Positions 2,688 through 60,362 of a DNA stretch of 64,000 bases are shown piece by piece. The translations under genes and the position numbers were made by a program. This DNA is from an uncultured archaeon. Lineage in GTDB: Archaea; Iainarchaeota; Iainarchaeia; Iainarchaeales; 1-14-0-10-31-34. The notes below the pieces were generated by a model. It had not been told where the DNA came from. It searched no databases and was given only the letters and a program-made list of their open reading frames with translations. The DNA lies in NCBI GenBank assembly GCA_964442255.1, contig CAYTYC010000003.1, positions 1-64,000 of the forward strand. The letters run 5' to 3'. Numbering within the stretch: position 1 is the stretch's first letter; the number at the start of each line of letters is the position of its first letter.

Positions 2688-4016
2688 ATGGCTTCACTGC
2701 TTGAAGACAAGGAAAAAATTTTGGGCCTGATCTGCTCCAAAACAGGCAAAACAAGGGAAGAAGTGGAGGGCCTGATTGCAAAGAAGAAAGAAAAATTTGC
2801 CGGGCTTTTGACTGACGAGGGGGCGGCGTTCATGATAGCCAAGGAATTGGGGATAGCGGTTGACGCGGAAGAGCAGGTGCAGGAAACAGCGAAAATTTCG
2901 GAACTGGAGGACGGAATGAATGGCGTGGATTTGAAAGCAAGGGTTTTGAGGGTTTACGCCCCAAAAAGCTTTGAATCCGGGGGAAAAAAAGGAAAGCTGG
3001 TTAAAATTTTGCTTGGGGACGAAAGCGGGGAAATTCCTTTAACGCTCTGGCACAAGGACGTGGAATGGATGGACAAGCAAAAAATAGGGAGAAACTCTGT
3101 TCTGCAATTGAGGAATTCGTTTGTTTCAAGCTTTAAGGGAGAAAAACAGCTTGGATTGGGTTTCAACGGGGGAATAGATGTTTTGGATGAAGAAATGGCG
3201 GGAAGCCTGCCAAAAGCCAAAAGCCATGCATTGAAGGTGAAGGACCTGGAGGAAAAAATGGATCAGGTGGACATAATTGCCAGGCTTTTAAGGGTGCAGC
3301 CCATAAAGGAATTTGAGAAAGACGGAAGGAAAGGAAAGGTTACGGGGTTTGAGGTCGGGGACGAAACCGGCACAGTGCGGGGAAGCGCATGGAATGAATT
3401 GGCTGAACAGGTAAACAAATTGGCCGTGGGAAAAATCGTGAAGATTGAGGGCGCGTACACGAAAAAAGGATTGCAGGGCACGGAACTGCAGTTAAGCTGG
3501 AGGGGCAGAATAATTGTTGAGCCGCCGATTTCCTTTTCACTCCCGGAATTAAACGAACTGTTAAAGGACGCAAAAATTGAGGCAAAAGAGAAAAAAATCG
3601 GGGAACTCAGGGAAGGAGAAAACCGGGTGGAGGTAAAGGGAAAAATTGTGAAGCTGTTTGACAGGAACCCGTACTATTTTTCGTGCGGAAAATGCCGGGG
3701 AACACTGGAAAAGGCGGGTGAAAATTTTGTGTGCCCTTCCTGTGGGGAAGTGACAGAACCGGTAATGAACGCGGTTGCTTCAGTTGAACTGGATGACGGA
3801 AGCGGCTCAATACGTGCAGTAGGGTTTAAGGAAAACGCGGAAAAAATGCTTGGGGTAAGCGAAGGGGAATTAAAAAAGCTTGTGGATGAAAAGCCGGAGG
3901 ACGTGGTGGCGGAATTAAAGAAAAAAATTGAAGGAAAAGAACTGAAAGTTCAGGGATACGTGAAAAAGAGTTCATTTAACCAGGAACTCGAGCTGATTGC
4001 AAGGGAAGTAAAGTAA
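2688..4016 (+). CDS. rpa: replication protein A (multiple OB folds plus C4 zinc finger)
   Basis: three OB folds (GDESG, GDETG, DDGSG), CxxC...CxxC, N-terminal GLLTDEGA domain. Confidence 0.85.
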   Translation: MASLLEDKEKILGLICSKTGKTREEVEGLIAKKKEKFAGLLTDEGAAFMIAKELGIAVDAEEQVQETAKISELEDGMNGVDLKARVLRVYAPKSFESGGKKGKLVKILLGDESGEIPLTLWHKDVEWMDKQKIGRNSVLQLRNSFVSSFKGEKQLGLGFNGGIDVLDEEMAGSLPKAKSHALKVKDLEEKMDQVDIIARLLRVQPIKEFEKDGRKGKVTGFEVGDETGTVRGSAWNELAEQVNKLAVGKIVKIEGAYTKKGLQGTELQLSWRGRIIVEPPISFSLPELNELLKDAKIEAKEKKIGELREGENRVEVKGKIVKLFDRNPYYFSCGKCRGTLEKAGENFVCPSCGEVTEPVMNAVASVELDDGSGSIRAVGFKENAEKMLGVSEGELKKLVDEKPEDVVAELKKKIEGKELKVQGYVKKSSFNQELELIAREVK

Positions 4017-25907: not shown

Positions 25908-26345
25908 TTATTCTTTCACTGAAGAAAAAGACGCGCAGGAAAGGGTTGCGGAAACGCCTTCAATTGCGCGGATTTTTTCAATGACAAGCTCCCCAATTTC
26001 CTTCAGGTCTTTTGCGCGAACCTTCACAAGGATGTCCCATTCGCCGGAAATCATGTGAACTTCAAAAACAGGGGAAAGCTTTGCGATTTTTTGCGCAACC
26101 GTTTTCTGCGGAATTTCTTTTAGCGGGGCATACTTTACCAAAATAAATGCTGTGGCGGGTTTTCCAAGTTTTGCGTAATCCGGCTGGACAGTGTATTTTT
26201 GTATTAACTTTTCTTTCTCCATTTTCTTTAACCTGTCGAAAACCGTTGTGCGCGGAAGCCTGGTTTTGCGGGCAATTTCCTTTATAGAGGCGCGGGAGTT
26301 TTTTTCCAGCTCCTCCAAAATCTGAAAGTCCTTTGAATCAGCCAT
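25908..26345 (-). CDS. Lrp/AsnC family transcriptional regulator
   Basis: D.QIL..L..NSR HTH; ISGEWDILVKV RAM domain. Confidence 0.93.
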   Translation of the reverse strand: MADSKDFQILEELEKNSRASIKEIARKTRLPRTTVFDRLKKMEKEKLIQKYTVQPDYAKLGKPATAFILVKYAPLKEIPQKTVAQKIAKLSPVFEVHMISGEWDILVKVRAKDLKEIGELVIEKIRAIEGVSATLSCASFSSVKE

Positions 26346-26380
26346 GCATTAATTATCCGGAAAAACTATTAAAAACCATC

Positions 26381-26417
26381 ACTTTTACGGATTTTATCCG
26401 GATTATCCGTCAAAAGT
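26381..26417. promoter_or_regulatory. inverted repeat between the divergent lrp and tRNA promoters (putative operator)
   Basis: ACTTTT-ACGGAT ... ATCCGT-C-AAAAGT; TTATCCG occurs three times in 26353-26409. Confidence 0.4.
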
Positions 26418-26448
26418 ATTAAATTTCAAGGAAGGGGAAGTATTTGAG

Positions 26449-26780
26449 AGGCGGGTAGTCCAATTGGCCAGGATGCCGGGCTGTTGAAATCAGAACCTGC
26501 GGTTCCGTAGAAGGCGGGGGATTTTTTGCTCAAGCTTTTTTTGAAAANNNNNNNNNNTTGCATGCGGTCCGGTAGACTTTGCCCGCCAGGCCGATTTCCT
26601 CCACCCGGCCGATTCGGACGCCGCGAAACTTAAAGGATGAACCCACTTCCAGACCTTGAACGGAATCTTCAAAATAGGTTTCGATCATGGCTGTTTTTTG
26701 AAAAAGCTTGCCCGATGCCTCCCTTAAGTTTCAGGGAATACAGTAACCCGGTGATGGGAGTTCGAGTCTCTCCCCGCCAG
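26449..26780 (+). tRNA. tRNA-Asn(GTT) with an approximately 259-nt intron at 37/38 (26487-26745, contains a 10-N gap)
   Basis: D arm GTCC/GGAT, anticodon stem CCGGG/CCCGG, T arm GGGAG-TTCGAGT-CTCTC; BHB CUGU/ACAG with UG|A and UA|A bulges. Confidence 0.75.
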
Positions 26781-26781
26781 T

Positions 26782-27387
26782 TTAGTGACCACTGCCGGAT
26801 TCTTTCCTGAATCCGGCAACAACCCACTTCAATTTTTTTCGGTGTTTTACGCCCAAATATATCCCGTAATAAGGAACTGTCATAAGGGCTGCCTGCCCTT
26901 GCGCCAGTTTTTTGATTGCCCACCGGCCATATTTTTTTCTCAAAGCCAGGGCGCCGGTTGCCCCAAGCACTGCGCCAATTGCAATTTCAGGGTTATCGGC
27001 AATCCTTGCAGCCATCCTGTCCAGGGTGGGGTTATTAAGATTTACAATCCACGTATTAACGTGTTGCACGCCGGCTCCAAGAGTTTTACCGATAATCTTT
27101 CCTTCAAGCGGCAGTAATGCGTATTTGTTCCACATCTCCACAGGCCAAGCGGCTACTTTCACTCCTACTTGGGCTGCTTCGGGAAGCTTAGCCATCCCTT
27201 TAGTAAGCCCGGCTTCTGCAAGCTCAGCCAGACGAACGGCTTTAAATCCTGCCATTGACCCGGCCAGTGCCCCAACAGAACCAGCTGTAACCTTACCAGT
27301 CAGGCGTTTTTTGAGGTCAGTTCCAACTCCCCCCGCCTTTTTAGGTGATTTATGCCCCGCCATGAAGTATCCCTCCTGAGAAAACAT
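26782..27387 (-). CDS. hypothetical Gly/Ala-rich, possibly membrane-associated protein (probable start MAGHKSPKK)
   Basis: about 200 aa ORF; GxxxG-rich hydrophobic stretches. Confidence 0.55.
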
Positions 27388-56193: not shown

Positions 56194-56307
56194 TGGGGCG
56201 GGGGGGATTTGAACCCTCGACACCATGGTCTTCAGCCATGTGCTCTCCTAAGCCTGCAAAAAGAAACCTTTGGATTTCTTGAATGCATCAGGCTGAGCTA
56301 CCGCCCC
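56194..56307 (-). tRNA. tRNA-Phe(GAA) with a 40-nt D-loop intron (18/19; 56249-56288)
   Basis: cloverleaf after removal; BHB AGCC/GGCU with UG|A and UA|G bulges. Confidence 0.92.
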
Positions 56308-56373
56308 AACGCTGAAATGCCTAACGCAATAACAATTCTTTGGGCAAGGGCTTTAAATGTTTTCTGCCGGGGC

Positions 56374-57017
56374 TCAACCCCCTGGATGCCTTTTGAGCGA
56401 TTCTTCCAGATTACGGACCAGAGAAGAGGTAACGCTCACGCTTAGAAGTCCTTTCAAGATGTCCCTTCTTTTATTTATTGCTTCAACTTCTACTCGTTCT
56501 TTCTTTATTTGCTCACGCACAGTTTCATCCCCTAAAAAATCAGCCATATCCAATCTGTGTTCAATGCTGCCTTCAATAGTTTCCCTGGTTTCCCTGTCCC
56601 CAACAATTTCCCTGTGAAGCTCTCTCAACCCGCCTGAATAACATTCATTCTCGCAAGACCCTGTTGTGCCTGTCCCCTGCTTCCCATGAATCTTGCCTGC
56701 CCGCAGGTTATCCACCGGTGCCCGATAGAAAACAAATTGGTTCTCTTATAATTGCATCCCTATTTTTCTCCAGAGTAAATCCCCAAGCATCCAGCCCTTC
56801 CCCGTGCCAGCTACCCACGCCTCCCCAAATAAGTGTTCCATTTGATGCCCTTCCGCTTCGGTTACATAAAGCTTGATGTCCCTGACATTTTCCCTAACAA
56901 GCTTCTGCATTTCCTTTATTTTTTTAAGGTACGGTTCAGGCAAAGGCGCTATTCTTGGATTATATTTTGGGCCCTGCCTGCAGAATCGGGTTTTGGTACC
57001 TTTCCTTCCCCGGCATT
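56374..57017 (-). pseudogene. fragmented orphan ORF(s) between tRNA genes
   Basis: short consecutive ORFs (56746-56943, 56374-56715) with stops or frameshifts; no recognisable family. Confidence 0.3.
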
Positions 57018-57147
57018 TAAGTTAGATCTTCCTGCTTTCCCTGGAATTCCAATTCCCTTTTTTAAGCGAGCCCGATGGGCGAGCAGATCTGCCTCGGAGC
57101 AAAGCGGAGGAGGCAGTGCCCGGACCTGCCCTACGGAACGGGCAAAG

Positions 57148-57255
57148 TGAGCCCAGAGGGATTCGAACCCTCGACCCCCTGGTTAAGAGCTGCACCGTAA
57201 AGCGCTTTAACGAGCGCTTCACTCAGGTGCTCTGGCCAGACTGAGCTATGGGCCC
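57148..57255 (-). tRNA. tRNA-Lys(CTT) with a 33-nt intron at 30/31 (57191-57223)
   Basis: strict BHB: GAG-CACC-UG|A / GGUG-CA|G-CUC; mature stem CCTGG/CCAGG. Confidence 0.93.
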
Positions 57256-57339
57256 ACAAGTGCACGACGGTAAGCGCACTAGCGCGAGCTAGTTCCATGC
57301 GTTAGCATGGGACGTTCCCTGGCGGGAACATCCGCCAAA

Positions 57340-57512
57340 TGAGCCCGCTGGGATTTGAACCCAGGACACCTTGGTTAAAAGCCAAGTGCTTATGGCGAAA
57401 ACGAGCAACGGAAATCAAATCCCGCAGCTTACGCCGCGGTTTTTCGGAAGCCCTTTCCCGGACCAATAAAAACCATGACTCTGTTTTCTCTGCCAGGCTG
57501 AGCTACGGGCCC
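57340..57512 (-). tRNA. tRNA-Lys(TTT) with a 99-nt intron at 22/23 (57391-57489)
   Basis: BHB UGGC/GCCA, bulges AG|A and UA|A, inner stem GAAAAC/GUUUUC. Confidence 0.9.
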
Positions 57513-60269: not shown

Positions 60270-60362
60270 AGCGGGATGGGGCAGCCTGGAGTGCCCGCCG
60301 GGCTCATAGATTTCCAAAATTGGGAAACCCGGAGGTCGAAGGTTCAAATCCTTCTCCCGCTA
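60270..60362 (+). tRNA. initiator tRNA-Met(CAT) with an 18-nt intron at 37/38 (60309-60326)
   Basis: A1-U72, three G-C pairs in the anticodon stem; BHB CUCA/UGGG with UA|G and AA|A bulges. Confidence 0.93.

Follow-up and report, generated by a model that had tools for sequence, protein, structure and literature searches.

How long is the intron of the tRNA-Asn(GUU) gene on contig C3 of the archaeal assembly G000, what is it made of, and how did it get there? The window analyzed here is a 64,000-nucleotide stretch of that contig; the assembly, from an uncultured DPANN archaeon, amounts to 1.28 Mb in 51 contigs and is 93.8% complete. The gene occupies positions 26449–26780 of the plus strand, and an earlier note on this DNA had described between its two halves a very large, structured intron (26487–26745). 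With a probability that we put at about 0.85, the locus is a tRNA-Asn gene with a 102-nt intron at position 37/38 composed of two nested dispersed repeats, and the extra 157 nt present in the scaffold are an artifact of assembly.

Length of the Intron and the Assembly Join

Logan contigs from three runs (X1, X2, and X3) of one microbial-mat study were aligned to positions 26100–27300 of the window. An X2 contig (record 7; 243 nt, depth 3.7) runs from 26334 to 26536 and then continues directly from 26694 to 26733 without a mismatch, skipping 157 nt; 11 letters at the joint can be assigned to either side. In X1, a 5.7-kb contig stops at 26536, and a 193-nt contig spans 26695–26887, again without a mismatch. 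The latter overlaps the X2 joining contig by 39 nt and reaches through the 3′ exon into downstream DNA. Positions 26334–26887 are covered by overlapping contigs, unbroken once 26537–26693 is left out. No contig of X1, X2, or X3 was found over 26551–26673, a hole that would carry no weight without the joining contig. An exact scan of metagenome contigs with a 36-mer from the left half of the intron gave no match.

The skipped 157 nt comprise three pieces. Positions 26537–26547 form the end of the left-hand contig and are identical to 26694–26704, an unmerged 11-nt overlap that is counted twice in the scaffold. They are followed by a 10-N gap at 26548–26557 (a survey of the assembly found three such gaps, all others being 100 N) and by a 136-nt foreign fragment of an MlaD-family gene. 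The rejoined intron is 50 + 52 = 102 nt long (26487–26536 joined to 26694–26745) versus 259 nt in the scaffold. The 259-nt length is an assembly artifact, and the true length is 102 nt.

Several claims of the earlier note change with this result. All of the strings that it cited are present where it placed them: CAAGCTTTTT at 26531–26540 and AAAAAGCTTG at 26701–26710, GAACC-TGC-GGTTC at 26493–26505, CCCT...AGGG at 26721–26736, GCGGTCCG at 26564–26571 and CGGACGCCGC at 26615–26624, GGCCG/CGGCC at 26589–26593 and 26606–26611, AGGCGGG at 26512, and CCCGCCAG at 26582. The intron of at least 249 called bases plus a gap does not survive the X2 contig, which skips 157 nt. Nor does the description as very large fit an intron of 102 nt in a genome for which ARAGORN with introns allowed predicts 42 tRNA genes, 23 with introns and 17 with introns of at least 76 nt (unverified predictions, some with plainly wrong anticodon calls). 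The long-range stem CAAGCTTTTT/AAAAAGCTTG, thought to span the gap, is not long-range: because 26536 joins 26694, the two strands become a local 10-bp hairpin with a 3-nt loop, as in a second copy of the sequence on contig C9 (below). The inner helices GCGGTCCG/CGGACGCCGC and GGCCG/CGGCC, taken as intron parts, and CCCGCCAG, taken as a copy of an acceptor strand, all lie inside the skipped foreign piece. Finally, the possibility that the gap joins unrelated loci had been named as a refutation. A foreign fragment was indeed joined in; the tRNA halves themselves are truly adjacent on one DNA, and the locus is therefore neither a split tRNA nor an integration site.

The Skipped MlaD-family Fragment

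The fragment (26558–26693, minus strand) was identified by a Pfam match, a protein alignment, and the contig that joins across it. Read on the minus strand from 26688 to 26560, it provides 43 codons that match Pfam MlaD with 29.6 bits against a cut-off of 25.1. The match covers profile positions 7–40 of 81, short of the full MCE domain. It is the sole MlaD match in the whole genome and the sole open reading frame (ORF) in the scaffold version of the intron. Database relatives are MlaD-domain proteins of 321–352 amino acids, the best being 76%, 73%, and 60% identical.

The fragment aligns to internal residues 34–79 of the 321-amino acid homologue P0001, past the hydrophobic N-terminal region of that protein, and at the locus this region is replaced by intron sequence. 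Homology extends upstream of the apparent ATG, where the window reads GKLFQKTAMIETYF and the homologue P0002 reads GKLFQKRVMIETYF, and it reaches position ∼26710 via a word of up to ∼19 nt common to the hairpin arm and the MlaD coding sequence. The codons for KLFQK, AAGCTTTTTCAAAAA, are exactly the arm of the intron hairpin. An internal fragment whose homology enters a word shared with an AT-rich palindrome is what is expected of a chimera formed in a de Bruijn (k-mer) graph, and the MlaD piece probably has such an origin. The assembler would have broken at the AT-rich palindromic hairpin, the right-hand contig would have been extended into a foreign MlaD-family gene via the common word, and the scaffolder would have bridged both contigs with 10 N, the minimum gap.

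At face value, 26558–26710 on the minus strand would place a bacterial-type MlaD/Mce gene (outer-membrane lipid transporter) in a DPANN archaeon. MlaD/Mce sequence in this archaeal bin is better read as a chimeric contig end.

Identity of the tRNA Gene

The gene was found by ARAGORN with introns allowed and was missed both by default ARAGORN and by Rfam. Its 5′ exon (26449–26486, plus strand; tRNA positions 1–37) contains the anticodon GTT at 26483–26485 and G37, and its A1 faces A72. The 3′ exon (26746–26780, plus strand) runs from A38 to the discriminator G73, as placed by ARAGORN and by alignment to relatives. Excision of 26487–26745 yields a 73-nt tRNA with the normal 7-nt anticodon loop CTGTTGA.

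The tRNA-Asn genes of two other genomes, G002 (same family) and G011 (locus L010), are intron-less and have the loop CTGTTGA, the same as the predicted spliced loop. The spliced tRNA matches that of G002 in 66 of 78 aligned columns, among them those of A1 opposite A72, an unusual feature, and of G73 as discriminator. The A1/A72 mismatch (window positions 26449 and 26779) is accompanied by G73 in G002 too (L009); G011 has G1-C72. An alternative ARAGORN call, tRNA-Thr(AGT) with an intron at 34/35, was rejected in view of the bulge-helix-bulge (BHB) geometry, G73, and the intron-less Asn orthologues, all of which fit Asn. The C3 locus is the sole tRNA-Asn gene, with anticodon GUU, that was detected in the genome. 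The assignment to Asn (GUU) made in the earlier note is supported by relatives that carry the very loop that splicing at 37/38 yields, and its borders, 26487 and 26745, fit a canonical 37/38 intron. The tRNA-Asn gene and its intron at 37/38 are real.

By eye, TATTAAAT at 26417–26424, ∼25–32 nt upstream of the tRNA 5′ end, occupies the expected place of an archaeal TATA box; a by-eye reading only, this inspection found no comparable TATA-like box ahead of the tRNA's 3′ half.

Splice-site Geometry and Processing Machinery

The sequence CTGT at 26481–26484 (plus strand; tRNA positions 32–35) is the 5′ strand of a 4-bp central BHB helix and pairs with ACAG at 26740–26743. At minimum energy, the rejoined precursor folds into a cloverleaf in which CUGU pairs with ACAG and a 3-nt bulge, UA|A, adjoins the anticodon stem; in the DNA, the bulge TA|A comes after the central helix, and the anticodon-stem strand CCCGG after the bulge. 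The BHB reading of the earlier note is supported by the predicted 4-bp helix and 3′ bulge, with a relaxed 5′ side. A like layout was seen by eye in three other genes, on C1, C4 (Glu), and C22 (Asp); the C1 gene, labeled "Stop" by ARAGORN, was read by eye as Gln(UUG). The introns of these genes start with (A/G)AATCAGAACC directly after position 37 and end with a 4-nt complement of positions 32–35 plus two bases.

The genome encodes an EndA with a single catalytic domain (PF01974, 96.7 bits; a 170-amino acid open frame on C19) and an RtcB on C5 (528.8 bits). RNase P RNA is also present (97.9 bits), which ruled out the idea that the hairpins described below replace RNase P. In DPANN archaea, increased disruption of tRNA genes goes together with α4-type EndAs that have an L3 loop, according to passages of Kaneta et al. 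(PMC5829648). We propose that the gene is transcribed as a single precursor in which the single-subunit EndA would cut a relaxed BHB. The anticodon stem and the CUGU/ACAG helix would define the 3′ site together with the 3-nt bulge UA|A; the 5′ site, UG|A, would lie in a loop adjoining the first hairpin of the intron, and RtcB would then ligate the exons.

Composition of the Intron

The long tRNA introns of this genome have three modules in common. Module A comprises the hairpin ATCAGAACC-loop-GGTTCCGAT, then (A/G)CCTCCCTT, and in many cases a CCCT/AGGG hairpin after that. Module B is a ∼40-nt hairpin followed by an AT-rich box, and module C consists of an AT hairpin, an A-rich linker, and a GC hairpin whose loop is UUCG-like.

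The left half of the Asn intron (26487–26536, plus strand) is matched by the X2 contig over 26334–26536 without a mismatch and was aligned to copies on C9, C10, C11, C14, and C27. It contains the module-A hairpin (26489–26507), a decayed GC mini-hairpin containing AGGCGGG (26508–26521), a linker rich in T, and, from 26531 on, the first part of the AT hairpin. The right half (26694–26745, plus strand), matched without a mismatch by the X2 contig over 26694–26733 and by the X1 contig over 26695–26887, contains the loop and the 3′ arm (AAAAAGCTTG) of the AT hairpin, CCGATGCCTCCCTT as the tail of module A, the CCCT...AGGG hairpin, ACAG as one strand of the central helix, and the TA of the 3′ bulge. 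Module A, represented by the hairpin ATCAGAACC-loop-GGTTCCG, the CCGATGCCTCCCTT box, and the CCCT/AGGG hairpin, is broken after GGTTCCG by an inverted module C consisting of the GC mini-hairpin, an A/T linker, and the 10-bp AT hairpin. Of the six composite copies (C3, C9, C10, C11, C14, and C27), five have CCG on both sides of the nested module, as read by eye, and C11 has CCGG.

Five near-full copies of the composite were found. The closest, the intergenic copy at C9:19085–19215 (minus strand), has the same composite with the hairpin intact and with no insert, and 98 of 120 aligned columns match. The copies on C10, C11, C14, and C27, likewise intergenic, are more diverged. Their AT hairpin reads GAAAC...GTTTC in place of CAAGC...GCTTG, and these two compensatory pair changes mark the AT hairpin as a conserved feature of the element. 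The string AGGCGGG, noted earlier as a copy of an acceptor strand, does lie in the true intron; it belongs to a repeat module that the C9 copy also has, as the decayed GC mini-hairpin.

The 8 nt TGCCGGGC just before the C9 copy (C9:19200–19215) also precede the element in the Asn 5′ exon (26474–26486, anticodon stem). This common string could mark the direction of copying, microhomology, or chance.

The 102-nt intron is not unusually stable: its folding energy of −30.1 kcal/mol (z = −1.29) was reached or bettered by 36 of 300 dinucleotide shuffles. There was no C box (RUGAUGA) on either strand and no D box (CUGA) on the sense strand. Rfam gave no match at E ≤ 1 for the locus or the C9 copy, and a scan of the window at the gathering threshold returned nothing at the locus. 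No homing-endonuclease ORF was found, the longest open stretch in the true intron being 33 codons. The suggestion of a mobile element hiding in the intron holds insofar as the intron itself is built of dispersed modules that are found intergenically and in other tRNA introns; it contains no gene.

Repeat Modules Elsewhere in the Genome

A BLAST search of the genome with the 17 long introns gave 70 merged regions, with the 17 query introns counted in. For at least 17 of the 70, a contig end is no more than 100 nt away, and this accounts for the breaks of assemblies at these positions. Other module copies directly flank tRNA genes. Module-C AT/GC hairpins stand between the 3′ end of 16S rRNA and the 16S processing stem (C17:1250–1485 and 3155–3268), with more upstream of the 5′ strand of the stem, and the stem itself (CTGGAGTTGAATT.../...AATTCAACTCCAG) is unique sequence. 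The repeats also occupy discarded parts of the rRNA precursor.

At C38:3330–3610, the 16-nt start of a tRNA, TCCCGCCTTAGCATAG, occurs twice and flanks a ∼245-nt array of hairpin modules upstream of an intron-containing tRNA gene; the duplicated string looks like a target duplication or a leftover piece of tRNA. The genome has two Y1 transposase genes of the IS200/IS605 type (C21:4219–4587 and C9:47136–47477). A link of the modules to IS200/IS605 elements or to repetitive extragenic palindrome (REP)-associated tyrosine transposases was rejected on inspection of the C9 flanks, the only ones inspected, where the transposase is bordered by GC-rich hairpins unrelated to the modules.

The Module-A Core in Other DPANN Archaea

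The pattern CAGAACC-N3-GGTTCCGRTRCCTCC, with at most one mismatch, was found 49 times in 13 of 196 genomes of the order, representing 9 of ∼32 families; a reversed control pattern gave no match in the 196 genomes. In a species-level genome collection the exact pattern was present at 99 loci (105 instances). Among the 80 record titles listed, nearly all are DPANN archaea of many phyla, the odd labels being Bathyarchaeia, Methanosarcinales, Dehalococcoidia, Mucilaginibacter, and "bacterium."

Four of the 105 instances abut a tRNA 3′ end on the same strand, seven abut a tRNA 5′ end in antisense orientation, and seven lie in anticodon-loop introns. For 70 instances no tRNA was found within 200 nt by ARAGORN, which cannot see T-loop introns, and several of these 70 are in fact tRNAs with T-loop introns. 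At L072, L099, and L115 the motif fills an intron at position 59/60, with a TTCA/TGAA helix and with the hairpin immediately next to a 3-nt bulge. The copy in G002 comes after the 3′ end of 16S rRNA. The ATCAG end of the motif always faces the exon.

Antisense copies stand against tRNA 3′ fragments at seven loci (L066, L068, L078, L098, L110, L121, and L137). At L066, in a DPANN metagenome-assembled genome (MAG), three tandem units directly precede a complete tRNA, each unit consisting of an antisense tRNA 3′ fragment (acceptor and T-stem, broken in the T-loop) plus the module-A core; the six other loci have similar single units. Pairing of sense and antisense copies as a trailer-leader processing stem was considered and discarded, because no such pairing was present in the seven tRNAs examined.

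The inner stem of the hairpin, which the pattern leaves free, is AACC/GGTT in 43 of 45 matches with no compensatory change, and the loop varies in sequence and length. So invariant a stem provides no covariation evidence and is uninformative on structure. The core is conserved in sequence, as would fit an element that spread recently or, alternatively, a site that a sequence-specific factor reads. A 15-mer of the core was absent from the ∼8.4 million texts of the literature searched, figures and supplements being outside the search, and matches to a 9-mer and an 11-mer were to unrelated primers.

The tail GAT(A/G)CCTCCCTT (for example, 26714–26725) resembles the 16S 3′ end GATCACCTCCTT (C17:∼3133–3160), and the hairpin with loop TGC has GAACCTGCGG in common with helix 45. 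The resemblance could be due to chance or to mimicry of an rRNA 3′-end processing site.

Other Features of the Window

The C3 window also encodes an archaeal signal recognition particle RNA and, as judged by eye from the translation, a RadA-like recombinase ORF. Rfam gave four other tRNA matches in the window, within 56202–57411 and 60270–60362, and for two of these ARAGORN predicts short introns, 33 nt in Lys (CTT) and 18 nt in Ser (CGA). The partial tRNA matches at 57345–57411 and 56202–56254 may be disrupted tRNA genes.

Origin of the Intron and Alternative Explanations

The structure called in the earlier note was mostly an assembly artifact; what remains is an intron, probably gained recently, that nearly copies intergenic repeats. 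Because the tRNA-Asn genes of G002 and G011 lack the intron, it is probably a lineage-specific gain. Many dispersed copies together with a site that is empty in these relatives are found, as for a REP-like element or a miniature inverted-repeat transposable element (MITE). The repeat would have been inserted recently at the DNA level, yielding an intron with no demonstrated function of its own.

Several observations weigh against this interpretation. The bridging X2 contig is short, with just 40 nt on its right side, and its depth of 3.7 is low. It is perhaps from the MAG's own sample or a sister sample, in which case the assembly is independent and the biology is not. A strain variant that bears the insert may also exist, being compatible with the contigs alone. 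No source gene was found for the MlaD piece, whose best homologues are just 76% and 73% identical, and an exact 41-mer of the piece had no match among metagenome contigs. In the predicted fold, the 5′ cut TG|A falls within a multiloop next to the module-A hairpin and has no clean 3-nt bulge, and this hairpin lacks its last two pairs in the Asn intron (GGTTCCGTA instead of GGTTCCGAT). No transposase or terminal inverted repeat was found to be tied to the repeats. As to splicing, expression, and the route of insertion, we infer them.

The alternative that survives best accepts the 102-nt structure and competes only with the description of the repeats as selfish. It takes the modules to be functional RNA: the module-A hairpin and its ACCUCC(C)UU tail would act as a signal for processing or decay that is conserved in DPANN archaea, or as a splice-site helix, and excision would release the intron as a stable noncoding RNA. 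The spread of the core, in 13 of 196 genomes of the order and at 99 loci across DPANN phyla, speaks in its favor, as do the placement of the core at tRNA ends, in anticodon-loop introns, and beside the bulge of T-loop 59/60 introns and its position after the 16S 3′ end in G002. On the other side, 70 of 105 instances have no tRNA within 200 nt that ARAGORN, blind to T-loop introns, could detect, the stem is invariant (43/45) with no compensatory change, and module C in the Asn intron is opposite in orientation to that in other introns. The relatives' tRNA-Asn genes lack the intron, none of the seven tRNAs examined has leader-trailer pairing through the motif, and Rfam gave no match. We consider a functional role for the modules possible and on balance doubtful. 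For the excised circle in particular, which had been proposed as a functional noncoding RNA, the missing Rfam match and C/D boxes and the intron-less relatives are weak evidence against.

The dispersed-repeat origin of the Asn intron can be taken one step further, speculatively. The module-A core (ATCAGAACC-N3-7-GGTTCCGAT plus ACCTCC(C)TT) might be a portable junction cassette that has spread across DPANN archaea. Where it landed beside a short complement it would supply the helix next to a BHB bulge, EndA could then remove the insert, and the cassette, with anything nested within it, could in this way seed new tRNA introns, leaders, and trailers. Were this conjecture true, the Asn intron would be a freshly caught case of archaeal intron gain, with donor-like copies still visible at intergenic sites.

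It is very unlikely that the scaffold is right and that the intron is at least 249 nt long with an MlaD-like fragment inside, for example a captured pseudogene piece in the binned strain. The MlaD piece and the 3′ exon form one unbroken sequence in the right-hand contig as deposited, and the scaffolder did link both contigs. Against this, an assembled contig joins 26536 to 26694 without a mismatch, the piece is internal to its gene and its homology extends into the word that it has in common with the hairpin, as is typical of a k-mer chimera, the hairpin is intact in five paralogous copies, and the genome has no other MlaD sequence. We give almost no credence to a gap that hides much more DNA (a split tRNA whose CAAGCTTTTT/AAAAAGCTTG pairing serves trans-splicing, or a gene disrupted by an integrated element): the scaffold gap between the tRNA halves and the 10-nt complementarity, of the kind known from Nanoarchaeum split tRNAs, would suit it, but a single contig reaches from unique DNA upstream through the 5′ exon and the hairpin and over the right half of the intron, and a second contig overlaps the first by 39 nt of sequence specific to the Asn copy and continues through the 3′ exon.

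In annotation, the chimeric junction of this scaffold (others from repeat-rich DPANN bins probably carry one too) would pass for an intron of record size or for part of an archaeal MlaD gene.

Comparison with Known Systems

The tRNA-Trp intron of euryarchaea, ∼100 nt long and located at 37/38, carries a C/D box guide RNA. In contrast, the Asn intron has no C box on either strand, no sense D box, and no Rfam match. In the split tRNAs of Nanoarchaeum equitans, a complementary stretch stands after the tRNA's 5′ half and ahead of its 3′ half, whereas the Asn halves are contiguous on one DNA molecule and their complementarity is that of a local hairpin. The gene is an ordinary archaeal BHB-intron tRNA gene with a longish, relaxed intron and is not of the C/D-box, endonuclease-bearing, or split kind.

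The modules resemble REP sequences and the bacterial interspersed mosaic elements that these form, or MITEs, in being short imperfect palindromes present in many copies, in nested or tandem mosaics and in either orientation, with assembly breaks. They differ in that no associated transposase or terminal inverted repeats were found and in their strong link to the discarded parts of stable-RNA genes.

With the canonical archaeal BHB introns at 37/38, which are cut by EndA and joined by RtcB (PMC4090602, PMC5829648), the Asn intron shares its position, a 4-bp helix, and a 3-nt 3′ bulge, and both enzymes are encoded in the genome. It differs in being 102 nt long and multi-branched, in having its 5′ cut in an open loop, and in that its sequence is a copy of a dispersed repeat. 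The review PMC4090602 calls the mechanism by which archaeal tRNA introns arrive unknown, and a 2026 preprint on Asgard archaea reports "no general route" of arrival. An intron that has no counterpart in close relatives and that is a near-copy of intergenic repeats offers a concrete, testable case of gain from dispersed repeats, and a conserved hairpin beside exon junctions provides a handle on EndA substrates.

The nearest published parallel, so far as the summary in PMC4090602 describes it, is that of the transposed tRNA introns of the Thermoproteales (Fujishima et al. 2010), in which near-identical introns are found in tRNA genes of different specificity within one genome. Both cases point to recent gain at the DNA level. 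As judged against that summary, the present system differs in that the modules are also found intergenically, in the leaders and trailers of tRNA genes, and within the 16S spacer, that the core extends across DPANN phyla, and that the lineage and the type of EndA are different.

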